In this document: in pieces, positions 8,001 through 26,186 of the stretch
Numbering within the stretch: position 1 is the first letter of the stretch
How the letters are laid out: every line of letters starts with the position of its first letter
From: Candidatus Hydrogenedentota bacterium
GTDB lineage: Bacteria > Hydrogenedentota > Hydrogenedentia > Hydrogenedentales > SLHB01
Length of the DNA: 64,000 nt
NCBI GenBank assembly: GCA_045863295.1
Contig: BTWA01000001.1
Coordinates: forward strand, 276,337 to 340,336
Direction: 5' to 3'
The notes under the pieces: generated by a model
Seen by the model: only the letters and a program-made list of their open reading frames with translations
What the model was told of the DNA's origin: nothing
Database searches by the model: none
Translations under genes and position numbers: made by a program

Positions 8001-9067
8001 GCATGGTGAATTTCCAGGCTGGCGGCCGGTTATCTCTGTTCGGTCAGGCATTCGCCAACGTGGCGAGCGACGCGACCGCGCAATCCTTGTTCAATGCGGG
8101 CATGTTGTTCTCCCTGTTTCAGGCGGAGAACGCGGTGCCAACCGATCTGCGGGTAGACGTGGCGGTCTTTACCGATCGCGACGGCGACGGGCGTGTCTGG
8201 CAGGACGACGGCGACAACGAAGTCACGCGCGACGATTTGAATCCCGCCGAGAACATTGGCTTAAAGCGCGGGTTGGAGCCGAATTCCAACGGATACGAGA
8301 CGTATGTGCATTACGGCACGGTGCGGGTGGAGAACAATTTCCTGGCGGTGTTTGTGCGCAATTGGGCGGGGCCCAACCAGGTGAACCGGTTCTCGCGCGT
8401 GATTTTGTCGCCGCGGAGGCACACGCCGGGCCGCATCAACATCAATACAGCGATCACCAAGGTGCGGAATCTGGGCGGGTCGGCGATTCCGTTCAATCCG
8501 CTGTTGGGTATCCCGGGCGTTCTGGGCCAATACGACATTGCCACCGGGTTCAATGCGCGCCCGGTGTCCGACACGACGTTAATCAGTCCGCTGACCGTTG
8601 CCTGGCAGGAAGCGTATTTGCTGTTGACCGGTACGGCGAGCACGGAAGGCATCATGCAGACGCGTGGCGCGCGCGACAACAACGGCGTCTTCGAGTTTCG
8701 TCCGGACGGGCGGTATTACCTGTTCCCGTCGGAGTTGGTGGCGCGGGGCGATTTGGATGCGTATGCGCGGATGGATCGGTTGGAGCTGTATCCGCGGGTG
8801 TTGTCTCCGAACGCGCCGACGTTGGGCGGATCGGAAGATGTGGTCACTGGCAACGAGATCCTTGCGTCCCAATTCGAGGAAACCAAGGAGCGGTTTTCGC
8901 GCATGGCGGCGATGGTCACCACGCGATCGGACGTATTCGAAATTGTGGTGACCGCGCAAGCCGGGTTCGCGACGGATGAGAACGGCGACGGGGTGGCGGA
9001 TTGGACGAGCGACGAGTTTGTGGTGCTCGGCGAGAAGAAGTTGCGGACGGTGTATGAGCGGCCGTGA
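2075..9067 (+). CDS. Giant GspK/PilX-like minor pilin (~2330 aa) with DxDxDG Ca-binding loops and lamin-tail-like segments
   Basis: ATGA coupling at 2075. QRG|AALLVAIGILAVLLALAL lacks Glu5, as in GspK/PilX. GspK-type motifs ITDESSRVNLNTA, GRININTA and TTRSDVFEIVVTAQ; repeated DGIDNDGDG..DE; EWVELTN...VDVSNW. Confidence 0.85.
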   Translation: MTMQYEHTRRSKAELFGRAFPSRSLGTRKEGRAFPSRSLGMRKEGRAFPSRSLGTRKENGQRGAALLVAIGILAVLLALALVFFGTSRVELRTAQNAKNSVQSDWLAQGASAMAMATLQSDGVLHPTATSLDHKWKTLYNGLWFLGKDWALNPSASHLPNVRADVLYSTLSGPEAKALWDQDFLYIPREQGNSIANSVDFTGPFLTSFNFADVNAFTIEEQVHQWLGGDNPLSNWGADNNGDGLLDSYWLPMPQDVYYGGLDVNTDGFIDASEGGDGIDNDLDGEIDEADELALFVYWGGRDQLDNDGDSLVDEGDEQRIFVTAPIVQRVWNPVAEVWLTYTLLQDFSPLVNPAVLEAYAGGTVGSAALSVSPAYNSPTVDVLDNDYSMIGNDSYGYIYLDAGNEDEYTANTTDEINYPKKYHNIGDAYRSFFNQVAINDLADYFRLAKQSGLIDFDPLDPDHLLGPPERSNSAFQVTASGEAVCSLAGRVAVLITDESSRVNLNTASGLALNDNFPSPSNANAIQSPADPTATEVTFASNLGATPYEYDSRVLPLIGPDRATRFPQFRGGVNSGNGFSTTTGGPYAGTADSLEWDMAFPGFGRVDDDGNAFWLSIDGIDNDGDGLTDEFYEGIDEPSEFRTFRPYRNRIAESDNDLSLLDDDELVNEIGEAGDQAFLIRDNMEQLDDIGTAITSGLRDLVTVHSRDANERNRIYSGLNETLGVQGGSSDISGLKLDTNFSSGVNIAQAIRENWFYPRSTLMMHAINVGQFGNPDPIPLVATDPPFTSPYFTVDDMLVANPVNPPTSVPSFHELGSFARALRVYDRALFNTPFGELVRHYPDPVNPYSAQIPFDGDEPYHYWINGNSLDNYAVGFDADPELRALQLGASIEDFRDSDHTRTVLTSTMLDHWWQEAVAPAVLPQIVYKVAGVESVRITEFMARPVRRMEAEATVNPVQAGYSINLDPNVFTDASAGVGPDFDFAIDSMAARTGFVVPAGGLAWQRRPVDPANLNPFIGSGTMVSSNAQLIGDTDTAPTIIRPNIVQYEFAPTTQLPPGKYYLTVNTTGTAGVSNSEFLFAVKVGLSSSDGGQSILDDALAYYADPLNPNLVDPVALFGTALHESPIAGRYNMDLQADPVVPGNLPSGWVFLPTTEGPLNAETQLGVTNNRYAGYGGFVGYTVEVPSFQPVGQRLSLYVAVMKSVNNTNELALNFFDFSQEPDHEWVELTNIAETAVDVSNWDLQISPGGSLADGGVFSIPQGTTIAPNGSILLAMNKFDAHVADIAQETPGSAASDNLTALYNSSLLSHTGIALARTVGGAFDFITEPPLPMYDPIASAVAAYSTAVPPNSVPIADDIGAQSMFLRRSDADFLDNDGDGRDDGANADALIESSPSGAGSGNLNFNGLATGGTNKAWDRIVQLQSPALSVNSLERLAAVVLGGGFLPNYPEFDIVDNDSDNGLLVNDGIDNDGDGGIDEADEGVEEGRFRRITAGQSVPGSYSATPVAYNVPGFTDREYMTNLDGPPEFKAFVERRYFPGENAVVTLYQGAEELGRVVDRVTYNQKDVENRAIHDILDCPYPLAARLDGATAGFWPDNTMGVDFYRSLQRKHPLYPGDMFATSNRWEATDGNYDDWHEGTNRWHYNGTTLVSRLQGASSGFDSIDYAQLYGHGFSGAPLRAKHFQRELMLHQMDFFPLVNPGQEFWGFLTAKVRNRTLGSSGDLLTMPQMILWKYMDYPQAATLTAFPMGLDALPLNGAVGGRSGPLLGNAYPKDIRSVLAETTTDSITLAVGTAGFYPLWPTPSMTLADNDAVLWDVSGNNINAVTRGWAPVFLYSLDPAGTEPPNTIISNGSRYPNLPASYPIQLNFLLNPSLPPAFTNFGDVAANLIPRWPLPQRAVMYVAANPASFDPRLAEQEMIASGAGDVLNDLSIPADSGAPFNARMPSESLFTWSGDNAVPNGEYDVYVASGNYLDGNRMVNFQAGGRLSLFGQAFANVASDATAQSLFNAGMLFSLFQAENAVPTDLRVDVAVFTDRDGDGRVWQDDGDNEVTRDDLNPAENIGLKRGLEPNSNGYETYVHYGTVRVENNFLAVFVRNWAGPNQVNRFSRVILSPRRHTPGRININTAITKVRNLGGSAIPFNPLLGIPGVLGQYDIATGFNARPVSDTTLISPLTVAWQEAYLLLTGTASTEGIMQTRGARDNNGVFEFRPDGRYYLFPSELVARGDLDAYARMDRLELYPRVLSPNAPTLGGSEDVVTGNEILASQFEETKERFSRMAAMVTTRSDVFEIVVTAQAGFATDENGDGVADWTSDEFVVLGEKKLRTVYERP
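2123..2248 (+). repeat. 3 x 42-bp tandem palindromic (REP-like) repeat, in frame within the prepilin leader
   Basis: Unit GGACGTGCGTTCCCAAGCAGAAGCTTGGGAACGAGGAAGGAA starts at 2123, 2165 and 2207. It contains the stem CGTTCCCAAGC/GCTTGGGAACG and encodes GRAFPSRSLG(T/M)RKE x3. Confidence 0.95.
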
Positions 9068-9268: not shown

Positions 9269-12200
9269 ATGCGCAAGGGGTATCGCAATCACACCGGGGG
9301 GTATTGGGCCGGGTGGATCGCCCTGCTGGCGCTTTGTTTTTCCGCATCGGTGGCGTGGCCGCAGGATGTCGTGGTGTGTCAGACCGGCGACTGCGGATCC
9401 TACACGCAGGACTTCGACAACCTGGAAGAAGGCGTCATCGAAGCGATCCGGCGCGCGCGCACGAGCGGCAATCAGTATGTGACGGTGTTTCTGGTCGAAC
9501 GGGCCGACGGCGCGGCGTGGGAAGGCGGGTTTGGCATCCCCGCGGATGCGAACATCGCGATCCTGGGTGTGCCGTTGGATGCCGACGGCGGCCGGTCGAA
9601 CGACATTGAGATTACGGGCACGGGTTCATTGCCGGCGTTGACGATCAGCACGGAACCCGGCGACTTGCCGGTTGACGCGCAGTATTTTGGCGGCGCGGGC
9701 ACCGGCCTTCGCATTGAAGGCGTGGCCTTGGTGAATAGCACCGAGGGGCTGGTCATCAAGGGCGATGTCGCGACCGGCGATTATATGCCCGTTATTTCAC
9801 GGTGCTATATCTCCGGCAACGCGAGTTCGATCGCCACCGAAGGCAATGGAGTTCGCGTCGAAGGCGAGGCATCGCCTTTGCTGGTCAATTGCAGCATCGT
9901 GAAGAACGAAAACGCAGGCGTGCTGGTGACCGGCACGGAAGGGGCGTTTGCCGAAATACTGCATTGTTCGATTCTCTACAATGAGATGTACGGCGTGCAC
10001 GTCACTGGAACGACGAACAATGCGCGGGTGCGCAATTCGCTGGTGTACCGCAATGGCAACGAGCCAGACGGTACCACGGATGCGAATGATCACGGCGGCC
10101 TCGTGTGGGACACGAATCCATTTATCGATCCCGACACGGGTCCTGTGGCGGGCGGCATTACCGTCATCATCAAAGGGTTTGATTTGACCAGCCCGCTAAT
10201 CAATCCCGGAAATTCGGATACCAATACCCATATCTTTTTCGGGCCAATGCACCATCCCGATACCGAGGCGGTTACATGGGTACTGACCTCGCGCGATGGC
10301 ACGACCGGGTTTGAAGTGCTGACGGTGACATTGCCGCCGTCCTATCTTGGCGCGCCGGGCCCGGTGGATGTGACCATTCAACGGGTTGACACGGGCCAGA
10401 TTCAGACCGTGCGCAACGGGTTTGTCTACGTGGCGGACGGGGGCGAAGCGCCGGTGGTGATGCAAGTGATTGCGGAGCACGGGCCGAGCGCGGGCGGCAA
10501 CATTGTCGCGGTGTACGGGGCGAACTTTGAAGAGCACTGCGACGTGTTCTTCGATTTTGAAGGGTCCATCGGTTCCATCAGCGTGGCGGAGCAATGCGAG
10601 TTTGTGGAATGGCTTTCGTCGGGCCATTTGATTGTGAAAGTGCCTGAATATATCGATCTTGGCGGCAACCGGCGCAAGGTGGATGTTCTGGTGCGCAACA
10701 ATACCACCGGCATCATCAGCGATACGGGCCAATATCGCGAGTACGAATACCGGATCGACGAAGACGATTTGTTGCGGCCTGTCGTGGTGCAGATCGTGCC
10801 GAATTACTTCCGCGACCTGGAGGGCACGGACGGCGCGCAGAACCTGTTGGCCGATGTGGAAGTGTGGGATGCGGAACCCGGCGCGACGATCAAGGTCGGG
10901 GGAATTCTGTGTCCTTACGAAGAGCGCGTGCGGATTTCGACCTCGGATACTCCGCCGGTGGATGTCACGGATCCCGAGAATGCGGAGTTGTGGGAGTTGC
11001 ACAACGTGCGCATTCCCGTGGCCGAATTCGGGTCGGGTGGATCGTACGACGTTGAAGTGACCAATCCGACCGGGTTGTACGATATTTTGCCGAGGGCGTT
11101 CACGTATTACCCCGACGGGGTCGAGCGATTTGAGCCCAACGAGCGGGGATGGCGCCCCTCGAACTTTGTCCGCCGCGACGGCGGCCTTTTGGGCACGCTT
11201 CCGTTCCGGTTGTTGGGCACGGGTTTCGATTGGGAGATCGCCATTCGGGTTCTGGGGAATTCCGGTTTTGGCGGATCGTTTCCGGTGCTTCCGAATCCGC
11301 CGTTGCGCGTATTTCCACACGAAGTCGATCCACCGCACGCACGCCATACGCAGCGCGAGGTGTTCTTCAATTTTCCGCCCGCGCCCGAGCAGGCTCCGTT
11401 TCTGTTCAATCCGGGCACCGGGTTCCTGAACGTCACCATAAACAACGTGGCGACGGCGACCGGCGATTATTCGTCCACGGACGTGCAGGACGTGGAAGAA
11501 CGGTTTTTCTATTCGTCGGCGTTGGAAGAGCCGACGGTGGGCGATCGGTCGCTCTATTTTGAAATCGAATTGCCGCTGGTGGTGGATGCGGGCAACGGCC
11601 CGAACGGCCGCGACATCATTACGATGACCGTGTTGAACTGGCGGAACGCGATGCGGGTGTACGTTGCGGATACCGCTGTAACGAAATACCTCGACGGCGG
11701 CGCGGACGGGTTTTCGGATACCGATCCGGACGCCGATCAGAATAATCCCAGCGACAACGTGCCCGATTTCGCGGAGCCCGCGGTCGGCACGACGGGAACG
11801 ATTCAGTTTGAAGCGCCGCGCCAACCGCAAGGCGTGGCGGGTCCCGTGGATGTGTGGATTCTATTGCCCGACGATGCAACGGCGCACAACACGCAAGCCG
11901 CCGATCTCTATTACTACGCGGAGAAGTCGTATAGCGTGCGGCCGGAGGCGCGACCGATCGTGCGCGCCGTCGTGCCGCGCACGCCGCCGGAAGACACGTT
12001 TACCGATGACAATCCTGTTCGGGTTCTGGGGTCCAACTTTGTTGGGCCGGTGGATCCCGCGGGTTGGTTTACCAACATTTGGCTGGACTGGGGCGACGGC
12101 ACCAATCTCACCGATGGCAACGAGATCTCGCTTGGACCGGTCAGCGGGGCCCCCGGCGCGGGAGCGCCTCCGACGGGCACCTATCAGGTGAATTCGTTTA

Positions 12201-15200
12201 ACGAGATCGAGTTCACGTTGGATCTGCCCACGTTGCGTTCGACGAATCCGTTGTTGTTGTCCGACGTGCCGGTTACGGTGGTGGCGGCGCTGATGAATGC
12301 GGCGGGCGCGGTGTATCAATACAACGGTTCCGATCTCAGCTTTATCCTGACCGATGCGCTTTCGTTCGAGTCGCTCGCGCCCATCATCGATGACGTGACG
12401 CCGTTGGATGGTCCCGTGGAAGGCGGCACGACCGTGACCATCACGGGCCGCAACTTCTTCCCCGACGGCACGACGCCGCCTTATGTGCGGTTCGGCGGCC
12501 GGGAAGCGCGGGTTCTCACCGCGACGCCCGGCGTTTCGGGTTCCCCTGATGTGATCGAAGTGGAATCGCCGCCGGCGCATTTGAATTTGCCGGCGACCGT
12601 CGCGATTCAGTTGATCTCGGTTGACAGCACGGTGCCTAAATTGCGCGAAGCGGTCTCCGAGAAGGAATGGTGGTTCACCTACTTCATGGACGGCAAGCCG
12701 CAGTTGCGGTCCATGTCGCCCAATCACATGGCGTTTGACGACACCTTCACGCAATACGCAACCCTTACGGGATTGAATTTCGACGATGTAGTAATCGTGC
12801 GCTTCTTGGATGCCGCGGATCCGACTGATATTCGCGCGGAACGCACGATGTACAGTGAATCGCCGACGACCATTCAGGTGAAGTTGCCGTTGCCCGGGGA
12901 ACTGGTGACCGAATCCGAAGTGAACGGATTCAACAAGGCCTTGCTGGTGACGGTGCAGAACGACAGTTCGAAAACGCTCGTCGATGCGCAAGCGCAGGAT
13001 CTGATCAGCAATCCGGTTTTGTTTACGGTGTTCGACGACTCCATCGGCGATCTCGAACCGCAAACCGCGACGCTGCTGTTTAATGACGTGTTCTGGAATC
13101 AGCAGGACTATGTAAACGTGCATCCCGGCGAGGGGAGCATTTCCGTCGATCCGTTGCTGGACCCCGGACCGGACGGCGAAGTCGGACCGCGTCTGGTGTT
13201 GACCGATTCGGATACGTGGTGGCTGGGCAAGTTGGCGCTGGGCCGCGAATCGATTTCGGGCATCGTCGACAATCCCTTGCGCGACAAGGCGGGTGAATTT
13301 ACGTTGGTGCCGTTCTCCAGCGAGGATCTCGAATTAGAAGTGCGCCCCGATAGCGCCAATGGTTTCGGCACGCAGGGCAACGGCGAATTCGGATCGCAGG
13401 ATACCGCGCAGCGCGGCCTGCCGGATATTGGCGCGGACGAAATCAACGACTTCCCCGACGATCAATGCTTGTGGTACTACGCGCGCGTGTTTCCGAGTCC
13501 GGTGGGCCGGTTGGATGCGGGCGAATTGCAGATCGACATCCGGTTGATTGGTTCGACCGATGCACCTGAAGTGTACATTGTTCCCCAAGGGTTCCTGCCG
13601 GCGGATGTGGTGGCGGATCCGCCCATTCCGCTCAGCCTGCAGGCGACCCTGGGTGAGAACGCATACCGCTACACCAACGACGAGCCGATCCCGCTCGCGG
13701 AAGACGGCAATCTGGCGAATCCCGACGATCCGGATGAGCCAATTGTGGACGGTCACGCCACGCTCATCATCACGTGTGGCGGCACCATCATCGGCGCCGA
13801 TCCCAGCGATCTGACCGAAGGCGGCTTGATCTTCGATCAGGCTATCACGGGCCGGCACTTCCTGATCGACACCGTGCCGCCGCGCATGTTTGTGGAATAC
13901 CTCGTGCCCGGCAATACCGCCGTGGGCGTGCAGCAATTGATCTTCGATGCGAGCGGCATCACGGTGGGCGGCCTGCCGAGTATCGACGTGTTCCCGCCGA
14001 CGACGGATTATACCGATCAGATCACCGCGCTGAGCGTGGAGCCGTTGTACCACCCGTTCCCCGCGACACCGGCCGTGCTCGGCACCATTCCGCCGTTGAA
14101 CTGGACGCCGGCCACCGATTTCATGCCGCAGGATTACGGCGGCGTGATCGATCTGGCGTTGCGAGGCACGCAGGGCGCGCAGGTATTTTTTAATCGCGGG
14201 TCGCAGGCGAATCCCGATTTTGCCGCGTCGCCGGTGTTGGTGGAATTTCCCATTGGTGTCCGGTTTGTCGATCCGCCGGTGACCAACGACGAGACATTGC
14301 CTCTGGATTCCGCGATGCGCATCAACGGCGACGACTTCTTCACGAGCAGTGACATCCGGCAAGTTTCCGGTTTCCCCGTGTTGGCCGAAGCGTACGCGCA
14401 GTACGCGCGCTTCCGAGTCGTGTCGTCCACCGGCCAGGAGCAATATTTCGTTGATCGTGCATCCGGTTCTCCGAGGCAGGATGTCGTGCCGCAGAATGGC
14501 ACGGCCGCCGATGCGGCGGAAGTGGCGGATGCGGTCATTGGCAACGAGGGCGTGTTCGATCCGGGCTTGGTGCCGGGCGATTCCGTGCCCGATCCGGCGA
14601 GCGTCGAAAATCCGGAAAACGATCAGATGCTTGGATTATGGAACATCCGTTGGGATCGTTCCTACGACACGTCCGCGGATCCGACGGGACCGTATCATGT
14701 GTCGCTGCAATTCGAGGCCGAGGATTTGGCGGGCAACGTGACCCGGCAGGAAATGCTGCTCGATCCGCTGCAACTGTGGTGGTTCCAAAACGTGCAGAGC
14801 CGCCTGTCGCCGAGCCGCGAAGGGCGCCGTGTGAACAGCGCGAATTTCACGCTGAGTCTCGAACGCACCGACGCGCCGATCGTGAACGGCGGTCCACCGC
14901 CAATTTTCATGTATCGCGTGTGGCAGGGCGGGCCTGATTTCGTCAACGACTACAACGCCGTTTACACGCCGGTTAGCGGGTGGAGCGTGTGGTCGCCGGA
15001 CCTGCTCATCAACACCGTCGAGGGATTGGTGCAGCCGGAGCATTGGGTGTTGGTCGTTGTGCAGAGCGCGGATGAAGCAGGCAACGTGGAACCATGGCCC
15101 AATTTCGACGTCGCGTCCGGCGGTCTGAGGCCGGATCCGGATGCGGCCATCGATTTCAGCGATCCCGATACATTGAACACGTATCTCTATCCTGAATACG

Positions 15201-15823
15201 TCGGCCTGACGTTGAGCCAGTTTGCCATCCAGGCGCCGAACTGGCAGCGGTTCTACCTGACCGGGGCGGCCGCGCCGGACACCATCGTGAAGCCGACGTT
15301 CTGGCACAACCAGATAAGCACGGGCAATCCCGAAGCGATTGATGGCGACGAGATCACGTTCGGCCAGTCCACCATCATACCCATGGTGCCGGAATCGCAG
15401 ATCGGGCAGCGGGAAGTGGAAGCGACCTTTGAGTTGTTGCCCGTCCGACCCAGGGACATGGAGCCGTCGAAGCGGATCTACATGGTGTGGCAGCTGCTTC
15501 AGAACGGCGTGGTCCTCATTCCGCCCGATTTTTCAAATCCGCTCACGCCGGAAGAACTGTTGGATCCGGATCTGAACCCAATTCGACTGGCCCTGGATGA
15601 AGGCGTCGCGTTGGGCGATCCAGCCCGGTTGCTGCCGTATACTTATGTCTTTCAGGCGGCGGCGTTTGTCGATGAGAACAACAACAGCCTGTTCGACAAC
15701 CAGGATTATGTGGATCCGAGTCCCGCCTCCGTGCTGTTTGTGGTGACTCCAACCGACATTGCCGGGTTTGTACGGCCGCCCGAAAGCGACGAGCAGCCCA
15801 TCAAAGAAACGGAAACGCAGTGA
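9269..15823 (+). CDS. Giant secreted protein with right-handed beta-helix and multiple IPT/TIG domains (adhesin-like)
   Basis: Sec signal (ALCFSASVAWP). Beta-helix repeats ISRCYISGN, LVNCSIVKN, ILHCSILYN, VRNSLVYRN. IPT starts PDTGPVAGGITVIIKG, HGPSAGGNIVAVYGANF, PLDGPVEGGTTVTITGRNF. Confidence 0.8.
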   Translation: MRKGYRNHTGGYWAGWIALLALCFSASVAWPQDVVVCQTGDCGSYTQDFDNLEEGVIEAIRRARTSGNQYVTVFLVERADGAAWEGGFGIPADANIAILGVPLDADGGRSNDIEITGTGSLPALTISTEPGDLPVDAQYFGGAGTGLRIEGVALVNSTEGLVIKGDVATGDYMPVISRCYISGNASSIATEGNGVRVEGEASPLLVNCSIVKNENAGVLVTGTEGAFAEILHCSILYNEMYGVHVTGTTNNARVRNSLVYRNGNEPDGTTDANDHGGLVWDTNPFIDPDTGPVAGGITVIIKGFDLTSPLINPGNSDTNTHIFFGPMHHPDTEAVTWVLTSRDGTTGFEVLTVTLPPSYLGAPGPVDVTIQRVDTGQIQTVRNGFVYVADGGEAPVVMQVIAEHGPSAGGNIVAVYGANFEEHCDVFFDFEGSIGSISVAEQCEFVEWLSSGHLIVKVPEYIDLGGNRRKVDVLVRNNTTGIISDTGQYREYEYRIDEDDLLRPVVVQIVPNYFRDLEGTDGAQNLLADVEVWDAEPGATIKVGGILCPYEERVRISTSDTPPVDVTDPENAELWELHNVRIPVAEFGSGGSYDVEVTNPTGLYDILPRAFTYYPDGVERFEPNERGWRPSNFVRRDGGLLGTLPFRLLGTGFDWEIAIRVLGNSGFGGSFPVLPNPPLRVFPHEVDPPHARHTQREVFFNFPPAPEQAPFLFNPGTGFLNVTINNVATATGDYSSTDVQDVEERFFYSSALEEPTVGDRSLYFEIELPLVVDAGNGPNGRDIITMTVLNWRNAMRVYVADTAVTKYLDGGADGFSDTDPDADQNNPSDNVPDFAEPAVGTTGTIQFEAPRQPQGVAGPVDVWILLPDDATAHNTQAADLYYYAEKSYSVRPEARPIVRAVVPRTPPEDTFTDDNPVRVLGSNFVGPVDPAGWFTNIWLDWGDGTNLTDGNEISLGPVSGAPGAGAPPTGTYQVNSFNEIEFTLDLPTLRSTNPLLLSDVPVTVVAALMNAAGAVYQYNGSDLSFILTDALSFESLAPIIDDVTPLDGPVEGGTTVTITGRNFFPDGTTPPYVRFGGREARVLTATPGVSGSPDVIEVESPPAHLNLPATVAIQLISVDSTVPKLREAVSEKEWWFTYFMDGKPQLRSMSPNHMAFDDTFTQYATLTGLNFDDVVIVRFLDAADPTDIRAERTMYSESPTTIQVKLPLPGELVTESEVNGFNKALLVTVQNDSSKTLVDAQAQDLISNPVLFTVFDDSIGDLEPQTATLLFNDVFWNQQDYVNVHPGEGSISVDPLLDPGPDGEVGPRLVLTDSDTWWLGKLALGRESISGIVDNPLRDKAGEFTLVPFSSEDLELEVRPDSANGFGTQGNGEFGSQDTAQRGLPDIGADEINDFPDDQCLWYYARVFPSPVGRLDAGELQIDIRLIGSTDAPEVYIVPQGFLPADVVADPPIPLSLQATLGENAYRYTNDEPIPLAEDGNLANPDDPDEPIVDGHATLIITCGGTIIGADPSDLTEGGLIFDQAITGRHFLIDTVPPRMFVEYLVPGNTAVGVQQLIFDASGITVGGLPSIDVFPPTTDYTDQITALSVEPLYHPFPATPAVLGTIPPLNWTPATDFMPQDYGGVIDLALRGTQGAQVFFNRGSQANPDFAASPVLVEFPIGVRFVDPPVTNDETLPLDSAMRINGDDFFTSSDIRQVSGFPVLAEAYAQYARFRVVSSTGQEQYFVDRASGSPRQDVVPQNGTAADAAEVADAVIGNEGVFDPGLVPGDSVPDPASVENPENDQMLGLWNIRWDRSYDTSADPTGPYHVSLQFEAEDLAGNVTRQEMLLDPLQLWWFQNVQSRLSPSREGRRVNSANFTLSLERTDAPIVNGGPPPIFMYRVWQGGPDFVNDYNAVYTPVSGWSVWSPDLLINTVEGLVQPEHWVLVVVQSADEAGNVEPWPNFDVASGGLRPDPDAAIDFSDPDTLNTYLYPEYVGLTLSQFAIQAPNWQRFYLTGAAAPDTIVKPTFWHNQISTGNPEAIDGDEITFGQSTIIPMVPESQIGQREVEATFELLPVRPRDMEPSKRIYMVWQLLQNGVVLIPPDFSNPLTPEELLDPDLNPIRLALDEGVALGDPARLLPYTYVFQAAAFVDENNNSLFDNQDYVDPSPASVLFVVTPTDIAGFVRPPESDEQPIKETETQ

Positions 15824-15943: not shown

Positions 15944-17362
15944 GTGAGGCTTATGAAGCGTCAGAGCAGGTATTTGCCAACCCGTCTGCTCGTGTGGGGT
16001 GTCGTGGCGGGTTTGGCGGCGTTGGTGTCCGCGTGCGGGGGCGAAAAACAGCCCCTGCTCAGCAATACCGTGGAAATTCACGCCGAACCCGAAGTGAATG
16101 CCGCCATCATTGTGGACGGAACGCAGATCGGGGAGACCCCCTTGACCCTCACCAATGCGGCCCCCGGACTCATTCTGCTTCAGTTGAAGAAGGAGGGGTA
16201 TCGCGATAAATGGGAATCGGTGGTGGTGCCGCCGGAAGGCAAGGCGGAAATCACGGTCCCGATGGAACTCATCCTCGGGTACCTTTCCATCACCACGGAG
16301 CCGCCTGGCGCTTCGGTGGTCCTCAGCGACGGTACGGAGTTGGGCACCACCCCCATCCTGCGCGCCGGTCTGCCGTTGGGGGAATACACCTACGAAATCA
16401 GGCTCGAAAATCACGAGACGCTTACCCATACCGTGATGGTGGACCGGGAGTCTCTGTTCAAGCTGGCGCACAACCTGAAACCGCGATCCGCCACGCTGGT
16501 GGTTTTCTCAGTGCCCACCGGGGCATCACTCTGGTTGAACAACCAATTGCAGGAAGAGCGCACGCCAGCCCGGCTTTCCGTGGCGCCGGGCACGTATACC
16601 GTGACCGTGCACTCCAAGGGCTACGTTATGTCCGAGGAGGTTGTTTCCGTGAATCCCAACACGGAAAAGCGCCTCGAACTGCGCATGAACGAGGGCAATG
16701 CCCCCCCGGGCATGCTGCTGATTCCCGGGGGTGAGTTCATCATGGGGTCGGATCAGGGGTCGCCCGACGAGCGCCCGGCCCGGAAGCTGTCCCTGGAGGC
16801 CTTTTATCTGGACAAGTACGAAGTCACCAACGAGCAATACAAAGCTGTCTACGCCGCGCACGAATTCGAAGAGGGAGAAGAGGACCACCCGGTTACCGGG
16901 GTCACGTGGCTGGAAGCGGTGAAATACGCGGAAACCGTTGGCAAGCGGCTGCCTACCGAGGCGGAATGGGAGAAAGCGGCCCGCGGAACCGACGGCCGGG
17001 AATATCCGTGGGGCCCCCTGTTTGACAAGACCCTCTGCAACTCCCTGGAGGGGTCCTTGAACAAGACCGAGACCGTCGGGACCTATTTGAACGGCGCCTC
17101 TCCGTATGGTGTAATGGATATGGCAGGAAATGTCTACGAATGGGTCGCCGACTGGTACAACCCCTATCCGGGCAACCAGGTTGTCGACAAGAACTACGGT
17201 CAAGTGTACCGTGTTCTTCGGGGTGGGTCGTTCAAGACCGGGGCTTACGAGGTCCGGTGTCTCCGGCGTACCTTTGATCGCCAGGATCTGGGCCGGAACG
17301 ATTACGGGTTTCGTTGTGCGCTGGATGTAAACGCGGCATCGGGCACGACGCGCGAGCCTTAA
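15944..17362 (+). CDS. PEGA-repeat + FGE-sulfatase (SUMF1-like) domain lipoprotein
   Basis: Lipobox LVSA|C. Three PEGA-like repeats (IGETPL; TEPPGASV..LGTTP; SVPTGASLWLN..RTP). FGE motifs FYLDKYEVTN, RLPTEAEWEKAARG, DMAGNVYEW, RGGS, GFRC. Confidence 0.9.
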   Translation: MRLMKRQSRYLPTRLLVWGVVAGLAALVSACGGEKQPLLSNTVEIHAEPEVNAAIIVDGTQIGETPLTLTNAAPGLILLQLKKEGYRDKWESVVVPPEGKAEITVPMELILGYLSITTEPPGASVVLSDGTELGTTPILRAGLPLGEYTYEIRLENHETLTHTVMVDRESLFKLAHNLKPRSATLVVFSVPTGASLWLNNQLQEERTPARLSVAPGTYTVTVHSKGYVMSEEVVSVNPNTEKRLELRMNEGNAPPGMLLIPGGEFIMGSDQGSPDERPARKLSLEAFYLDKYEVTNEQYKAVYAAHEFEEGEEDHPVTGVTWLEAVKYAETVGKRLPTEAEWEKAARGTDGREYPWGPLFDKTLCNSLEGSLNKTETVGTYLNGASPYGVMDMAGNVYEWVADWYNPYPGNQVVDKNYGQVYRVLRGGSFKTGAYEVRCLRRTFDRQDLGRNDYGFRCALDVNAASGTTREP

Positions 17363-19921: not shown

Positions 19922-20953
19922 ATGAAGCGTTCGCAGATAATGATGATAGTCGCCATCGTGGCCGTAGCGGCCGCGCTGGGTGCGGTATACAAATTCTACG
20001 TGCTCGAACGGCTGACCAAATTCGCCTCGGACGAGAAGTATCTGACCGCGCTCAAGACCAAGTACGAAAACATCAGCAAGACCTTTCACGGCACCAAGCC
20101 CGAAGTGGTGGTCGAGGCCTACGCCAACAAAGTACAGCCGTGGCTGGCCGCACTGGATGCCCGGACGGATTACTACACCCTTGGCGGCATCCGCGACATT
20201 GAACCGATTCCCGAGGGCGAAGACGCCCGCTGGTATTACATTCGCAAGGCCCCGGACATGGTGAGGACGATCCAGGAGACGGCGTACAAGCAGAACATCG
20301 GCGTGCCGCCCGATCTCTGGTTTCAATCGCCCCAGCCTCCCCGGCTGCAGGGCATCACCGTGGAAAAGCAGCACGTAGAACGCTGGCTCCAGAACATTCA
20401 AATGGGTTCCGGCATTGTGCAGCAGTTGCTCGATGCCAAGGCTCTGCGGGTCGATGCCATTGAACTGTGGCCCCGCCGGGAAGGATCGTTGCTGTACATC
20501 TATCACGTAGGCGTGAAGATGTGGATGAACATGGAGCAACTGGCCACGTTTCTCAACGATATGCTCAGCGATCGCCGCCGTTGTTTCTTTGTCGACAACA
20601 TCCGTATCCGGAATCCGTACGTGTTGTACGAGAATCCTCCGCTCCAGATCGATCTCGTGTATACCATGTACGAACTGAAACCGACGGCAGACAAAACCAA
20701 GCTTGCCGCTCCGGCCGCGGCTGCGCCGATGATTGCCAGTGCGGCACCGGTTACGCCTGCGCCGGCCGCGACGACGCCGGGCGTCACGCTTCCGGGCGCC
20801 ACGCCGCCCCCGGCCGCCGTGCCGGGTCTGAATCCGGAAGCGGCCGCGGCGCTGCAACAGGCGGCAAGCAGCCGCGATGAAGAGCGGACCGCGCGCCAAA
20901 GCCAGGGCAGCGGCGACTTTTTGGATTGGATATTGTCCTTCTTCCCGTTCTAA
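19922..20953 (+). CDS. PilO/GspM-like inner-membrane assembly protein
   Basis: N-terminal TM and coiled coil; MNMEQLATFLNDM...FFVDNIRI ferredoxin-like pattern; position after pilMN; Ala/Pro-rich tail. Confidence 0.6.
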   Translation: MKRSQIMMIVAIVAVAAALGAVYKFYVLERLTKFASDEKYLTALKTKYENISKTFHGTKPEVVVEAYANKVQPWLAALDARTDYYTLGGIRDIEPIPEGEDARWYYIRKAPDMVRTIQETAYKQNIGVPPDLWFQSPQPPRLQGITVEKQHVERWLQNIQMGSGIVQQLLDAKALRVDAIELWPRREGSLLYIYHVGVKMWMNMEQLATFLNDMLSDRRRCFFVDNIRIRNPYVLYENPPLQIDLVYTMYELKPTADKTKLAAPAAAAPMIASAAPVTPAPAATTPGVTLPGATPPPAAVPGLNPEAAAALQQAASSRDEERTARQSQGSGDFLDWILSFFPF

Positions 20954-21025: not shown

Positions 21026-21562
21026 ATGGACCAGATACAAAAATTCGGATTGATGCTGTGGGCGGTCAAGGAAAAGATCGTCCTGGCCTGCCTGGTCGCG
21101 ATCCTGAGTTGGCAGGTGTACAAGGTGGTCATGAGCGCCAACGGCGCCGATGCCGGAGTATCCGTCGGGCCGGTGACGCCGCCAAAGCCGGAGTTGACCG
21201 ATTTGCAGGCGATCGGAGCGGAATCGCCGGGGCCGCCCCCGGAGCCGATTCGGGTGCAGGAATTTACGGCCCTGGTCCGGCGCAACCCGTTTACGGTGTA
21301 TGGCAATGAGGCTGGCGAATCCAGCGGCTCCACGCAAGTGGAAGAAAAGCTGGATCTGACGCTTGAACGCATTGTTCCCTGGAGGGACAACACGGTACGG
21401 GCACAGATACGCACCAAGACATCGCGCGCAGAACCTTATTACGAAGGTCAGTCCGTGGAGGACTTCAGAGTGGACAAGATCGATGCGGAGAAGCAGGAAG
21501 TGACCATCTTTTCCTTCAAGCATCAAAAGCAGTTCGTTTTGAAAGTCGGACAGACCAGTTGA
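21026..21562 (+). CDS. PilP/GspC-like protein
   Basis: TM anchor, Pro-rich linker, RRNPF motif and YEGQSVEDFRVDKIDAEKQEVTI beta domain; directly before the secretin. Confidence 0.65.
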   Translation: MDQIQKFGLMLWAVKEKIVLACLVAILSWQVYKVVMSANGADAGVSVGPVTPPKPELTDLQAIGAESPGPPPEPIRVQEFTALVRRNPFTVYGNEAGESSGSTQVEEKLDLTLERIVPWRDNTVRAQIRTKTSRAEPYYEGQSVEDFRVDKIDAEKQEVTIFSFKHQKQFVLKVGQTS

Positions 21563-21619: not shown

Positions 21620-24600
21620 ATGAATGGTCGACGGATGCGGAAGGCCGCCGGAATGTCGTTGCTGTGCCTGCTCGTGGCGGCAATGACGGTATACGGCGGA
21701 GCGTTGACTGCCCAGGCGCAGGGGGCATCGGGCGCCGTGGAAGCTCCAATTGTTACCGAGCCCCAACCCACCGCCGCGGAGAGCGGTCCCGAACCCCAGG
21801 GCGTGAGCCCGGCGGACGAGGCCTACAATGAAGGGGTGGCTCTCTACAACCGGGGCATGTTCCTGGAGGCCTTGAACAGTTTTAACAGGGCCCTTGCGAA
21901 CGATCCCAATCATCCTCACGCGAAGACCATGGCGGAACGCGCCCAGACGAAGTTACAGACCACGGCCGTAGGCCAGGAACCGGCTGTGCTTCAGACGTTC
22001 GAAACCTTCGAAGCCAAGCCCGCGGAATCGGAGACGACTTCCGATGCAGGCATTCCCGAATCGGCCGAAGAACTCCGCTACCAGACGGTGAAGGAACTGC
22101 TTGAGCAAGGCCAATTCCTGCTGGAGAACCGCAAGTTCGAACGTGCCCAGAAATTATTCGAGCGCGCCCTGATTATCGATCCCGAGAACAAGACCGCGGC
22201 CCGTCTGCTGCAAGAAGCGACAATCGGCACCTTTGACGAACGGCTTCCCCGCGAATGGCAGAAACTGGAAATCGACCGCCTCCGCATTCGCGAAAAGAGC
22301 GAACAAATCAAGCAACTCCCCGACGGCGCGGACGCATACGGCATCAAGGACATCACCATCAGCGTTCCGGTCGCCGAAGAAGAATTTGTCCGTGAAGAAG
22401 AAAAGACCGACATCGAAAAAGCGCTGGATGAATTCGTCTCCATTGAATTCGAAGAGGAACACATCAGCAATATTCTCGATTACATCGCGGAATACGCGAG
22501 CATCAACATCGTGCTCGACAGCCGCGTCGTAGACCCGCCGCGCCAACCGGTGCCGCAGGTCCAACCCGGCGTACCGGGCACAGTTCCCGGCGGCGTTCCC
22601 GGAATTCCCGGGCAGCCCGGTTTTGGCGCGCCCCAACCGTTCGGCGTTCCGGGTCAAGGATTTCAGCAACCAGTTCCCGTGCAACAGCCGGCCTTCGAAC
22701 CGACCGGCGATCCCGATGAAGATCGCCGGGCGTCTCGTCGAGGCGGCGGCCTCGGCAACATTCAGTTGCAGGGCGTCAACGGCCAGTTTGCGACCGGCCC
22801 CGGCGGCCAGCCTGTGTCGGATATCGTTTCCGACGGGTACACGGGCATCTTGAAATTGGATGACGTGCCTCTTCGCGATGCCCTCAAGGCTGTGCTCCGC
22901 CCCCTGAATCTTGATTTCAGCGTGCAACCTGGTTTCCTGTGGGTGAGCACGGCCGAAAAGATTCGGACCGAATCGTTCGAAGAAATGGAAACCCGCATCT
23001 ACGAACTGAAAAATGCGGGCGCGGAAACGCTCTTCAAGATTGTCGTGCAGAACCCCGGCGGACTTTCCGGCGGCGGCGGTGGCGGCTTCGGCGGCCAAGG
23101 CGGCGGTTTTGGCGGCCAGGGTGGTTTTGGCGGCGGTCAAGGCGGTTTTGGTGGCGGTGGCTTTGGTGGTCAAAGCGGCGGTTTTGGTGGCGGTGGTTTT
23201 GGCGGCCAAGGTGGCGGTGGCTTCGGCGGCGGTGGCTTTGGCGGTCAAAGCGGTGGTTTTGGCGGCGGTGGTTTTGGCGGCCAAGGTGGTGGTGGTTTTG
23301 GCGGCGGTGGCTTCGGCGGCGGTGGCTTTGGCGGCGGTCAGGGTGGTTTTGGCGGCGGTCAAGGCGGTGGCTTTGGCGGCGGTCAAGGCGGTTTTGGCGG
23401 TGGCCAGGGCGGTTTCGGCGGCGGCTCCATCCAGGTCTCCAATATCTCCCAACTGTTCTCCAACATTAACGACCAACTCGTCGGTGAACCGCCTGCGGTC
23501 ATTGGCATCAGCACGGTTGGCACAGGGCTCGATGCGCGCCAGGGTCAGCAAGGAGCGGGTTTGGGTGCAGGCGGCCGGCGTGACGACGAGTTGGGCGGCG
23601 GCGGCCTCGGCGGCGGCGGTCTTAGCGGCGGCCAGACGGTCGGTACTTCCGGCACGGGATCCAGCTTGGGCAGCTCCGGCGGCTTGGGCGGATTCCAGGG
23701 TCAAGCTGAATTGCTGACCATATTGCAGAGCGCCATTCCCGAGATTGTCGAACCGTTCACCGACGAAGTGTTGTCGTGGATGATCTTCAATCCCACAACC
23801 AACCAACTCATCGTGCACAACACGCCCAGCAATCTGAAGAAAATGGAAGCGATGATCCAGGATCTGGACATTACGCCGAAACAGGTCAGCATCGAAGCGA
23901 AGTTTTTGGCCATATCCGTGACGGATCTCGACAAGATCGGCTTCACGTGGGACCTGACCCTGAGCGATCAGAACAGCCGCAATCGCGTTATTGACGCCAT
24001 CGAAACGCCCGGCGTCTCCGATGCGGACGGCAACCCCGGCTATTTTGCCGATGTCAACGGCGACGGATCGAACGAGATTCTCCCGTTCTATACGCGTCCC
24101 GACGGCACCAACGTAATTAACAACACCGTATCCACCCTTACCGGTACAGGCGCGGTGAATCCCGGACCCGACGGCACGTTTGACCTGAATGCGGTCATCC
24201 TGCAAAACGAGGACGGCGATCAATTGAGCGTTATGATGGACTACCTCAACAGCCTGACGGAGACCGAGTTGTTGAGCGCGCCGCGCGTGACCACGATGAA
24301 CCGCAAACCGGCGGTCATCGCGGATATCCTGACGCAGACGTTCCAGACTCAGGTCTTCCAAGAAATCATTGTGAGCGATTCCGGGTTTGGCGGCGGCGAA
24401 ACGACTGCCTCGGTGCAGCAACCACAATTCTCCACCTTTACGTTCGGTATCGTGTTGTCCGTTACACCGCAAATCAGCGGCAGCAATCAGGTCCGGTTGT
24501 GGCTGAACCCGCAGGTGACCACGCAACAGGGACAAGACGAATTCATCGCGACGTCCACGGTGGACGGAAACACGCAAACCGCGACCATCCGTTTCCCGCG

Positions 24601-24847
24601 CGTGTCGATTCAATCCGTCTGGACCAACGTCATCGTGAACGACGGCGACACGCTTGTGCTGGGCGGGCTCATCACGGATCGCACGACGCGCGGCAAGACC
24701 AAGATGCCGTACGTGGCGGACATTCCGGTGATCGGCTACTTCTTCCGTGGCAAGTCGACGGAAATCACGCAATCGAGCCTGTTGATCTTCACCACGGTGA
24801 ACATCATCGATCCGACCGGTGCACGCTTCTTCGAAGCGGGCGCATAG
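21620..24847 (+). CDS. Outer-membrane secretin (PilQ/GspD family) with N-terminal TPRs and a Gly/Phe-rich insertion
   Basis: Signal peptide and TPR helices. N3 motifs ETRIYEL and LIVHNTPSNLKKMEAMIQDLD-PKQVSIEAKF. Secretin motifs LLSAPRVTTMNRKPAVI, VLSVTPQI, GDTLVLGGLI, VADIPVIGYFF. Confidence 0.93.
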   Translation: MNGRRMRKAAGMSLLCLLVAAMTVYGGALTAQAQGASGAVEAPIVTEPQPTAAESGPEPQGVSPADEAYNEGVALYNRGMFLEALNSFNRALANDPNHPHAKTMAERAQTKLQTTAVGQEPAVLQTFETFEAKPAESETTSDAGIPESAEELRYQTVKELLEQGQFLLENRKFERAQKLFERALIIDPENKTAARLLQEATIGTFDERLPREWQKLEIDRLRIREKSEQIKQLPDGADAYGIKDITISVPVAEEEFVREEEKTDIEKALDEFVSIEFEEEHISNILDYIAEYASINIVLDSRVVDPPRQPVPQVQPGVPGTVPGGVPGIPGQPGFGAPQPFGVPGQGFQQPVPVQQPAFEPTGDPDEDRRASRRGGGLGNIQLQGVNGQFATGPGGQPVSDIVSDGYTGILKLDDVPLRDALKAVLRPLNLDFSVQPGFLWVSTAEKIRTESFEEMETRIYELKNAGAETLFKIVVQNPGGLSGGGGGGFGGQGGGFGGQGGFGGGQGGFGGGGFGGQSGGFGGGGFGGQGGGGFGGGGFGGQSGGFGGGGFGGQGGGGFGGGGFGGGGFGGGQGGFGGGQGGGFGGGQGGFGGGQGGFGGGSIQVSNISQLFSNINDQLVGEPPAVIGISTVGTGLDARQGQQGAGLGAGGRRDDELGGGGLGGGGLSGGQTVGTSGTGSSLGSSGGLGGFQGQAELLTILQSAIPEIVEPFTDEVLSWMIFNPTTNQLIVHNTPSNLKKMEAMIQDLDITPKQVSIEAKFLAISVTDLDKIGFTWDLTLSDQNSRNRVIDAIETPGVSDADGNPGYFADVNGDGSNEILPFYTRPDGTNVINNTVSTLTGTGAVNPGPDGTFDLNAVILQNEDGDQLSVMMDYLNSLTETELLSAPRVTTMNRKPAVIADILTQTFQTQVFQEIIVSDSGFGGGETTASVQQPQFSTFTFGIVLSVTPQISGSNQVRLWLNPQVTTQQGQDEFIATSTVDGNTQTATIRFPRVSIQSVWTNVIVNDGDTLVLGGLITDRTTRGKTKMPYVADIPVIGYFFRGKSTEITQSSLLIFTTVNIIDPTGARFFEAGA
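23069..23425 (+). repeat. Low-complexity coding repeat (GGFGG/GGQ)n in the secretin
   Basis: 119 codons of almost only G/F/Q/S, with 18 FG dipeptides. Confidence 0.95.
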
Positions 24848-24914
24848 GACAGACTCCAAAGTCGAAACGGACGTGGGCGGCTTCCAAACCGGGAGCCGCC
24901 CCGCTTTTTTGATC

Positions 24915-26186
24915 ATGGCGACGTGGATTTACAATGCAGCGATGTCGGCGGCGGCACCCTTGGGTGCGGCCTATCTGGCGCTGCACCCGAAATACAAACC
25001 GCTGCTTGGCCGGTTCCACCCGCGCCTGCCCGAAGGCGCGCGCATGGAGCGCCCCCTCCTGTTGCACGCATGCAGTGTCGGCGAAGTGAATGTGGCCGCC
25101 ACGTTACACGCGGCGATCGCCCGGCGCTGGCCGGGGATACCCGTTGCCGTGACGGTTTCGACAGTCACGGGGCGCGCTTTGGCCCATCAGAAATTGCCAT
25201 CCGTGCCGGTTCTATGGTTTCCCTTTGATCATTCCCGCGTTGTCCGCCGTTTTTTCCGGGAGATCAATCCTCGGGCAGTATTCCTGCTCGAAACGGAGCT
25301 TTGGCCCAACGCGATTGCGACGGCGGATCGCCACCGGATTCCGGTGGCGGTCTTGAACGGGCGGATTAGCGATCGGGCCTATCCCCGGTACCGGCGCTAC
25401 AAAGGCTGGATCCGGCCTGTGGTGGAACATATTCAGTTGGTCTGCGCGCAGACCGAGGAGCATGCCGGGCGGTTTCGTGAATTGGGAGTTTGCAGCGATT
25501 CGGTCGGAGTGACCGGCAATATGAAATTCGATGGCGTGCGCACCGCCTATACGCCCGGTGAAATGGCGGCCATCCGCGCGTCGTTTGGCTTCGCGGCGGA
25601 TGACCTTGTCCTCGTCTACGGCAGCCTGCGTGCCGGAGATGAACACACCGCGGTTGCGCTGTGGCGGGCCGTCCGGGACTCCCATCCGAGAATTCGGTTT
25701 GTGGTGGCGCCCCGCCATCCGGAGTTTGTGGATACGGTTGCGAATGCGTTTGGCGAGCCCGTGGCGCGGCGAACGCAACCGGCCGAGGATTCCCATTCCG
25801 GTTCGAGCCGCGTGCTCGTGTTGGACACCGTGGGAGAGTTGGCGGGCCTGTACAGCGTTGCCTCGGTCGCGGTTGTCGGCGGCAGCTTTCATCCCGGCGT
25901 GAACGGGCACAATCCTATCGAATCGGCTGCACTCGGCGTGCCCACGCTATTCGGTCCGTACATGAGGAATTTCGCGGATTCCGCGGATGCGCTCCTCCGG
26001 GCGGGCGGTGCCGTTCAGACTCCTGCGGAAGCGTTGGAGGCGGAGGTCCTGCGCCTGATCGCGCACCCGGATCGCGCCTCGCGCCTTGCGGCGAACGGCA
26101 AAGCCGCCATTGCATCCGCCCAGGGGGCGGTGGAACGAACGCTGCGCGCCGTGGAAGAATCAATGCCGGCGGTGTTTCGCGAGTGA
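24915..26186 (+). CDS. waaA: Kdo transferase (GT30)
   Basis: LHACSVGEV, ETELWPN, LNGRISDR, TGNMKFD, APRHPE, LDTVGEL, GHNPIE. Confidence 0.93.
   Translation: MATWIYNAAMSAAAPLGAAYLALHPKYKPLLGRFHPRLPEGARMERPLLLHACSVGEVNVAATLHAAIARRWPGIPVAVTVSTVTGRALAHQKLPSVPVLWFPFDHSRVVRRFFREINPRAVFLLETELWPNAIATADRHRIPVAVLNGRISDRAYPRYRRYKGWIRPVVEHIQLVCAQTEEHAGRFRELGVCSDSVGVTGNMKFDGVRTAYTPGEMAAIRASFGFAADDLVLVYGSLRAGDEHTAVALWRAVRDSHPRIRFVVAPRHPEFVDTVANAFGEPVARRTQPAEDSHSGSSRVLVLDTVGELAGLYSVASVAVVGGSFHPGVNGHNPIESAALGVPTLFGPYMRNFADSADALLRAGGAVQTPAEALEAEVLRLIAHPDRASRLAANGKAAIASAQGAVERTLRAVEESMPAVFRE

Follow-up and report, generated by a model that had tools for sequence, protein, structure and literature searches.

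A long Gly-rich insert with spaced hydrophobic residues in the N3 domain of a Hydrogenedentota secretin, and its counterpart in a short periplasmic paralogue

Position and composition of the N3 insert

Secretins are wide holes in the outer membrane whose tightness is only partly understood, the known means being gate loops and, in Pseudomonas aeruginosa, plug proteins (PMC13392014). In InvG, an insertion in the N3 domain, disordered in other secretins, was proposed by Hu et al. (2018) to give rise to the periplasmic constriction seen when the channel is closed. Once the needle is bound and the channel open, this loop passes to the outside between N3 and N1, and a short helix fixes it between subunits (PMC6155069). 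In PulD, the loop comprising residues 288–303 was unresolved, and sites of the N3 constriction were named in the channel (PMC6882859). The secretin considered here is a PilQ-like protein of 1075 residues, encoded on the forward strand by the open reading frame (ORF) 21620–24847 of a 64,000-nucleotide stretch of DNA (the window) from an uncultured sludge bacterium of the phylum Hydrogenedentota. According to its AlphaFold2 (AF2) model, it carries an insert of ~220 residues that probably corresponds to the variable N3 loop of other secretins, enlarged to an extreme in this type-IV-pilus-like protein and occupying the same N3 connection as the loops of InvG and PulD, or an adjacent one.

In the AF2 model (mean predicted local distance difference test score, pLDDT, 63.7, from an 85-row alignment), a disordered region comprising residues 473–693 (pLDDT ~30) lies between strand 457–462 and helix 464–470 on one side and helix 697–705 and strand 720–724 on the other. 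The initial annotation had reported an FG-repeat insert at 23069–23700, placed behind the first N3 strand (ETRIYEL) and ahead of the remainder of N3. The repeats are confirmed at these positions, which correspond to residues 484–694, and the placement fits the model, with strand 457–462 followed by disorder at 473–693; its background on the N3 constriction and on disordered N3 loops in known secretins agrees with the papers on InvG and PulD (PMC6155069, PMC6882859). The motif ETRYYELRNAGAETLFKIV at the first N3 strand and helix is kept in the alignment of the secretins (A1). Like InvG 217–267 and PulD 288–303, the insert is predicted to be disordered and lies in N3, either in the connection that leads from the first strand and helix to the second strand or in a neighbouring one. 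The loops of InvG and PulD have been tied to a periplasmic constriction; by analogy with these two proteins, the loop would reach into the channel lumen. The helix that anchors the InvG loop between subunits is located near the end of that loop (PMC6155069), and in the secretin described here helix 697–705 ends the loop. Unlike the loops of InvG and PulD, which comprise 16–51 residues, the insert of ~220 residues combines a Gly tract with spaced hydrophobic residues and a conserved island, and a second protein contains a counterpart of it.

The first part of the insert, the G/F/Q tract (residues 484–602), is built of only four residue types (G88 F18 Q11 S2) and contains no charged residue. It includes exactly 18 FG motifs, every one of them in the form GFG, with an F-to-F spacing of 5–8 residues. 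Among 200,000 shuffles of the tract, 18 FG motifs were found in 512, whereas 18 GFG motifs, or spacings that all fell within 5–8, were found in none. At the DNA level the tract is a decayed tandem array, in which Tandem Repeats Finder detects a 75-nt period (3.3 copies with 83% matches) as well as shorter ones of 45 nt (90%) and 21 nt, and the regular spacing of F therefore follows from the duplication of a unit. Contig pieces from sequencing runs of three other studies tile positions 22815–23722 with 0 differences, which rules out an artefact of assembly. An RNA library gave one exact contig of 251 nt (22842–23092, depth 2.2), which does not prove transcription. The high-depth pieces and the many 'joints' in 23069–23632 derive from GGC-rich repeats of other organisms and from short contigs, and they support no claim of length polymorphism or expression.

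The tract is followed by the island, a non-repetitive segment with the consensus SNISDLFxxIxDxxVGExPA kept throughout the secretins of alignment A1; in the AF2 model it contains a single four-residue helix (609–612, pLDDT 41–55). Beyond it is a second Gly-rich stretch, and across the island and this stretch together (603–695) Gly accounts for 29 of 93 residues. The tract has a molecular mass of 9.3 kDa, and the insert as a whole one of 19.1 kDa. When the entire 6.3-Mb genome was scanned in six frames, only three Gly-rich tracts of this kind with a length of at least 30 residues were found, namely that of the secretin, one of 62 residues on contig C77, and an RGG tail of 36 residues on contig C51. 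The genome contains seven matches to the Secretin domain, one of them (C1:258425-258943) ~18 kb upstream of the window, and in none of the six others is a Gly tract with spaced hydrophobic residues present.

Conservation of the tract and its match in a short paralogue

The secretin is present in 117 of the 121 sampled genomes of the phylum (E≤1e-40), and all ten of the close relatives that bear an organism name are listed as Candidatus Hydrogenedentes, Hydrogenedentota, or Hydrogenedens. A Gly-rich segment (40 residues with at least 45% Gly) is found at the corresponding place in 87 of 92 close relatives (P0003–P0094). The five that lack it are P0043, P0069, P0082, P0088, and P0089, with P0043 and P0069 keeping a mini-tract of 29 residues; no such segment is found at this place in any of five outgroup proteins (P0095–P0099). 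Two flanking motifs delimited the tract in 70 of the 92 relatives, the other 22 being dropped for failing one or other regular expression. In 63 of these 70, the tract comprises 41–156 residues (median 112) with at least 50% Gly and at least 8% F/Y/M/L/W, as well as a median of one acidic and three basic residues; among the relatives at large, its length extends from 29 to 183 residues. The assemblies of many relatives split the secretin gene exactly in the tract, leaving frames of ~500 residues that end at positions ~500–590 of the query, and database entries of these secretins are therefore often split or truncated.

The dominant hydrophobic class of the 63 long tracts is F in 26, Y+M in 32, and L in five, and the mean spacing of the hydrophobic residues varies between 2.8 and 13.2. 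Many of the Y+M relatives contain plain GGM repeats, as in P0060, where the tract is composed of G and M only, or in P0052. A conserved periodicity of Phe, which had been set beforehand as a test of the proposal made in the initial annotation, is thus not found, since Phe itself and its spacing both vary. Of that proposal, a cohesive plug resembling that of FG nucleoporins, the site and the idea of a soft plug stay plausible, and the specificity for FG is not supported, Phe not being conserved among the 63 relatives. Nor is there support for the suggested passage of a giant tip complex. As judged from the sequences, the insert is a family trait of Hydrogenedentota secretins in which composition, rather than sequence, is maintained: what the relatives have in common is a tract rich in Gly and almost devoid of charge, with hydrophobic residues at intervals, which would fit a cohesive phase but not an FG-specific one.

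A similar tract is present in a family of short proteins. In an exhaustive protein search, many proteins of 310–430 residues match only residues ~400–630 of the secretin, with 50–70% identity, and one of them (P0254, 373 residues, contig C77, L001:1429–2550), the only such protein in its genome, is encoded by the same bacterium as the secretin and has a G/F/Q tract like that of the latter. In the 22-row alignment of this family (A2), a signal peptide, whose end is of the AxA type and leads into DSITV, precedes a small β domain, a long helix, and a linker, after which come a copy of the second half of N0, an ETRxY...TLPKIVV strand–helix element, a Gly tract with spaced hydrophobic residues, and the island, where the chain ends. 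P0254 has this layout. The consensus of the island in the family is SNISxLFSTIDDRLVGExPAVIG, with residues N323, I324, S325, L327, F328, I331, D333, V336, G337, and E338 being invariant. Two members, P0158 and P0186, carry two tract-plus-island units in tandem, which suggests from their sequences that tract and island together may form one evolutionary unit.

The AF2 model of P0254 includes a confident small barrel (40–75) and helix (90–127), a moderately confident N0-like part (179–211), and disorder from residue 216. Its matches to N0 of PilQ (4ar0, E 0.017) and to STN (4.1e-06, below the cut-off) are weak, and the comparison with NCBIfam returned no family. A Foldseek search of the PDB with its fold produced no match at E≤0.001 and nothing better than weak similarities to small SH3-like barrels, and the ESM Atlas provided no usable feature match, the structure rows having template modelling (TM) scores <0.5. 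No pilus genes are located beside the short paralogue in six genomes (its own and those of five relatives), where a MoxR AAA gene adjoins it in three and an aldo/keto reductase gene in three; these neighbours point to no particular function. P0254 itself is adjoined by a divergent MoxR-type AAA ATPase, MoxR and a Ser/Thr kinase flank the paralogue in genomes G030 and G024, and the aldo/keto reductase flanks it in G022, G074, and G005. Prediction of a complex between residues 400–760 of the secretin and 150–373 of the short paralogue, run without controls, gave a score of 0.04, compared with a mark of 0.32, a result that weighs neither for nor against an interaction.

The two proteins agree in the type of hydrophobic residue. 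In 26 of 28 genomes, the tract of the secretin and that of the short paralogue have the same dominant class (F, Y+M, or L), pairing F with F, Y/M with Y/M, and L with L (G028 and G075); in G102, both proteins combine Y with R. The two genomes that do not match, G068 (4F 3Y compared with 4F 3Y 2M) and G010, have mixed tracts of nearly equal make-up, and the share of F among the hydrophobic residues in the secretin correlates with that in the paralogue over the 28 genomes (Pearson r = 0.92). In a tree of the flanks, from which the tract was excluded, 15 modules of secretins and 16 of short proteins are placed on opposite sides of one branch (Shimodaira–Hasegawa-like approximate likelihood ratio test, SH-aLRT, 84), and none of them groups according to its genome. 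The duplication is therefore an old one, and homogenisation of the flanks is not taking place.

The longest DNA word common to both tracts of a genome does not exceed the longest between-genome value in 11 of 13 genomes (18 nt compared with up to 24 nt in G000), and it is slightly longer within the genome in G041 (27 compared with 20 nt) and G058 (26 compared with 22 nt). In G028, the Leu codons of the two genes differ, with CTC used in one and TTG/CTG/CTA in the other. The match is therefore at the level of amino acids, and gene conversion as its source is mostly rejected by the word lengths and the choice of codons, with local exchange possible in G041 and G058.

A proposed cohesive vestibule mesh and the alternatives to it

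The marks of cohesive disordered domains are the lack of charge, richness in flexible residues, and regularly spaced hydrophobic residues that can be exchanged as long as hydrophobicity is kept. By analogy with such domains, we favour a role of the insert as a cohesive, deformable mesh that would plug or gasket the vestibule, working like the FG and YG phases while not being kin of the nucleoporins, and we put the probability of this reading at roughly 0.4. The loop is anchored at both ends in one small domain and is therefore not an inter-domain spacer. The PilQ entries 6ve2, 6ve4, and 6w6m contain 14–15 subunits, and with the same number an oligomer of this secretin would hold 252–270 FG motifs, in line with the more than 200 that the initial annotation had estimated. 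The 14–15 loops would cohere through their spaced hydrophobic residues, probably joined by the tracts of the short paralogue, and would build up, at the vestibule on the periplasmic side of the gate, a mesh that is both soft and dense. At rest, this mesh would close the channel to small solutes, and on the passage of a fibre or cargo it would be pushed aside, or would thread out between the N rings, as the loop of InvG does. The island is probably an anchoring or docking element that binds to a folded domain.

We can further speculate that the gate of the secretin is a two-component cohesive phase, in at least one phylum, formed by the tracts of the N3 ring (14–15 copies) together with those of the soluble truncated paralogue. 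The type of residue (F, Y/M, or L) would then co-evolve because both tracts must mix. This extension, taken as a whole, is doubtful.

Several observations weigh against the vestibule mesh. The mass of the loops per 14-mer is 130–267 kDa (our own arithmetic), to be compared with a vestibule of 60–90 Å in PilQ of Vibrio cholerae (PMC7545093); the tracts by themselves would occupy much of this space and could not remain there beside a pilus. In the open form of InvG, the corresponding loop threads outwards between N3 and N1 (PMC6155069), and in the AF2 model of the secretin the canonical first helix of N3 is either 464–470 or 697–705. As regards the agreement between the two proteins, the secretin tract is partial in 10 of the 28 genomes, with a contig end falling inside it, and the test by independent contrasts is powerless, with ~4 class changes on weakly supported branches and one on a starred branch; the shared periplasmic environment could also give both proteins a like composition.

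The main rival to the vestibule mesh, itself unlikely, is an external collar or gasket, in which the loops would exit the ring between N3 and N0 and, with the short paralogue, wrap the periplasmic part of the channel in a cohesive layer that could stabilise the multimer, connect it with peptidoglycan or with the inner-membrane alignment complex, or cluster the machines. The bulk of 130–267 kDa per 14-mer fits outside the ring more easily than inside, the loop is ended by helix 697–705 and contains the conserved island, and the short paralogue, which has a signal peptide and is encoded outside the pilus operon, is soluble and periplasmic, all of which suit a collar. On the other hand, the unresolved N3 loop is tied to the lumenal constriction in closed InvG and in PulD (PMC6155069, PMC6882859), and no peptidoglycan-binding domain (LysM, SPOR, OmpA, or AMIN) was found in the secretin or in the short paralogue with Pfam and NCBIfam.

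The insert might also be a tolerated low-complexity expansion, in which replication slippage has lengthened an unconstrained loop, leaving an inert entropic bristle or a segment with no function. In favour of this, the DNA is a decayed tandem array, the spacing of F follows from unit duplication, and the length of the tract varies between 29 and 183 residues in relatives, being ~29 residues in P0043 and P0069, with five of the 92 relatives having no Gly-rich segment at all. Nevertheless, the tract is retained in 87 of the 92 relatives across the phylum, is almost free of acidic residues (median 1) with hydrophobic residues throughout, is absent from the other six Secretin-domain genes of the same genome, and in 26 of 28 genomes agrees in residue type with an old paralogue while using different codons; a conserved island is also located mid-loop. 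Neutral expansion is improbable because of this conservation, specificity, and co-variation.

Less probable again is a chaperone-like lining, in which a flexible surface of weak hydrophobicity would retain pilins or exported proteins in the vestibule, or act on them as a lubricant, rather than seal the channel. Y+M tracts, many of them plain GGM repeats, are found in 32 of the 63 relatives and recall the Gly–Met-rich termini that protrude into the central cavity of chaperonins (PMC4379175, PMC11978752). Two giant proteins that look exported are encoded just upstream of the secretin. Against a lining of this type, the tracts are 5–10 times longer than the tail of GroEL, and this secretin is not known to export unfolded chains; the lining and the plug overlap and lead to the same prediction from the sequence. 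That the tract folds into an ordered Gly structure, such as polyglycine-II bundles or amyloid-like sheets, and stiffens the ring is very improbable, since, despite polyproline-II helices being reported for the Gly–Met tails of GroEL (PMC12571646), residues 473–608 have a pLDDT of ~30 and no secondary structure in the AF2 model with 85 aligned sequences, the F spacing of 5–8 is no period of three, and both length and residue type vary freely in relatives.

Although the N3 variable loop itself is known, the switching of the hydrophobic residue type throughout a phylum, as well as its match in an old paralogue, is new; a description of FG or Gly–aromatic tracts in secretins or in the pili of Hydrogenedentes was not found in the literature covered, from which subscription journals were absent. 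If the vestibule mesh is true, secretins would have a third answer to their leak problem, namely a disordered, cohesive plug that belongs to the protein itself. This would be the first bacterial example of a selective phase, a counterpart of the FG phase of the nuclear pore and of the YG phase of peroxisomal PEX13, and it would allow a pilus or folded cargo of very large size through a wide channel while keeping that channel tight. The family supplies natural F, Y/M, and L variants, together with a partner protein of the matching tract type, which makes the idea directly testable.

Gene surroundings and comparison with known systems

The assignment of the protein as a secretin is based on its match to PF00263 in Pfam (residues 877–1064, 105.8 bits compared with a cut-off of 27.5, E 2.5e-30), which places it in that family. 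In NCBIfam, PilQ (TIGR02515) ranks first with 149.9 bits, under the curated cut-off of 284.35, followed by GspD (140.4, cut-off 351.35), MshL (132.1, cut-off 250.2), and Amuc_1098_fam (122.6, cut-off 750), each of which also scores below its cut-off. The closest solved chain found with the family profile is PilQ of V. cholerae (6w6m, 2.2e-38), with GspD and PilQ of P. aeruginosa next. Foldseek with the AF2 model also places 6w6m on top (1.8e-17), with 40 PDB matches at E≤0.001. TPR repeats are present at residues 66–197 (TPR_2, 7.5e-11). The Secretin_N match (E 7.3e-05, below the cut-off) covers only the second half of the profile, with residues 722–755 aligned to positions 36–69 of 69. No AMIN domain was found in the secretin with Pfam, and no nucleoporin family is among its Pfam matches at E≤0.01.

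The N0 domain also carries an insert. Its elements in the AF2 model are strand 272–277, helix 282–293, and strand 296–299, and then strand 411–417, helix 418–429, strands 432–436 and 439–443, and helix 445–450. Between the two groups lies a P/G/Q/V-rich, disordered insert of residues 305–398 (22532–22813), with a pLDDT below 50 for 315–399. In relatives P0009, P0059, and P0077, the N0 insert is Gly-rich with F or M, resembling their own N3 tracts. An ORF on the opposite strand to the secretin gene (22154–24916, minus strand, 920 residues) is rich in Ala, Thr, and Lys; it was rejected as a real gene, lacking support and looking like a by-product of the GGC-rich frame. The coordinates of the secretin and of its domains are listed in Table 1, together with those of the pilus-type genes upstream.

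Table 1. Domains of the secretin and pilus-type genes upstream of it, with positions in the window.
Feature	Position	Strand	Basis or content
PilM-PilN-like fusion, 786 residues	17497–19857	+	PilM_2 2.4e-49; PilN 0.0019 (weak)
Two small membrane-anchored ORFs in the positions of PilO and PilP	19922–20953, 21026–21562	+	Place only
Secretin gene (P0001)	21620..24847	+	Order: signal peptide, TPR, N0, N3 with insert, Secretin domain
N-terminal TPR and helical region, residues 64–231	21809..22312	+	Pfam TPR families; AF2 helices, pLDDT 85–97
N0 (STN-like) domain, residues 264–450, split by a disordered insert	22409..22969	+	AF2; profile aligns ~258–301 to N0 of 6w6m
First N3 strand and short first helix (TRIYEL, NAGAETL), residues 457–470	22988..23029	+	AF2 strand 457–462, helix 464–470
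G/F/Q tract, residues 484–602 (119 residues)	23069..23425	+	Composition; shuffles; tandem DNA periods; pLDDT ~30; exact contig pieces
Island within the loop (SIQVSNISQLFSNINDQLVGEPPAVIGI), residues 603–630, non-repetitive	23426..23509	+	Conserved in alignment A1 and in the short paralogue family
Second Gly-rich stretch (G/S/L/Q/T), residues 631–695, disordered	23510..23704	+	Composition; pLDDT <50 for 626–693
Remainder of N3: helix 697–705, strands 720–724 and 729–734, helix 736–749	23708..23866	+	AF2; Pfam Secretin_N
Secretin β-barrel and gate region, residues 755–1064	23882..24811	+	AF2 strands 755–1063; PF00263; aligned to 6w6m 385–569

The PilM part of the fusion upstream is matched by TIGR01175 (pilM) with 176.8 bits, above the cut-off of 133. 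The best NCBIfam match of the fusion protein is Amuc_1101_fam of Akkermansia (1.9e-72, below the cut-off), which points to kinship with the pilus cluster of the Amuc_1098–1102 type. The two small ORFs that follow have no family match in Pfam or NCBIfam, and their putative identity as PilO and PilP comes from their position. Ahead of pilM, on the same strand, are two prepilin-like N termini, GFSLVE (~524) and GFTLTE (~945), as well as two giant ORFs, one of 2473 residues with a Lamin Tail Domain (1646–9067) and the other of 2184 residues with β-helix and TIG domains (9269–15823). The prepilin motif was not found at the start of the latter, which resembles an ordinary signal peptide. A protein combining PEGA and FGE-sulfatase domains is encoded between the giant ORFs and pilM (15944–17362), also on the same strand.

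Comparison with PilQ (6w6m, 6ve2) reveals the best matches in both sequence and fold, the same order of N0, N3, and secretin domains, and a PilM-like gene upstream. The protein described here differs from PilQ in scoring below the curated cut-off, in its N-terminal TPR, in that no AMIN domain was found, and in the long disordered inserts of both N0 and N3. A precedent for the proposed job of the loop and of the short paralogue is provided by PilQ of P. aeruginosa, which is sealed near the gate by the periplasmic proteins SlkA and SlkB until the inner-membrane complex docks (PMC13392014). Compared with SlkA and SlkB as they are described, the plug proposed here would be disordered, and would be part of the secretin itself plus a truncated paralogue of it.

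The Gly–Met tails of GroEL are similar in consisting of GGM-type repeats, one per subunit, that extend into the cavity of a ring oligomer, and GGM repeats are also carried by the secretin relatives of the M type. Unlike the secretin loops, these tails are cytoplasmic and terminal. They are also much shorter than the secretin tracts.

In the conduit by which folded proteins enter peroxisomes, the Y/G domain of PEX13 assembles into a selective hydrogel (PMC9795577), and its composition resembles that of the G/Y relatives of the secretin (P0032, the tracts of the P0102 type, and genome G102). PEX13 is eukaryotic, seated in the membrane, and unrelated in sequence, and the hydrophobic residue of the secretin in the window is Phe. 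Phase separation of a Gly-rich tick protein likewise proceeds via aromatic and Arg residues (PMC11794139).

Domains of the Nup98 type differ from the secretin tract in several respects, since the spacers of the latter are almost pure Gly and short (5–8 residues), its location is the periplasm, where no transport receptors are known, and the likeness is one of design, with no homology. What is common to both is disorder, the lack of charge, FG motifs placed on flexible spacers, and the presence of many copies around a ring channel. The secretin of the window has the predicted disorder, the absence of charge, and the repeated FG of a cohesive FG domain (18 motifs in 119 residues, pLDDT ~30), whereas the FG motif itself is not conserved among the 63 relatives with long tracts. 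The FG phases of Nup98, for their part, are reported to tolerate changes of the motif if hydrophobicity stays, and to form a tighter barrier with shorter spacers (PMC9918544), and this tolerance parallels the F, Y/M, and L variants of the secretin tracts.

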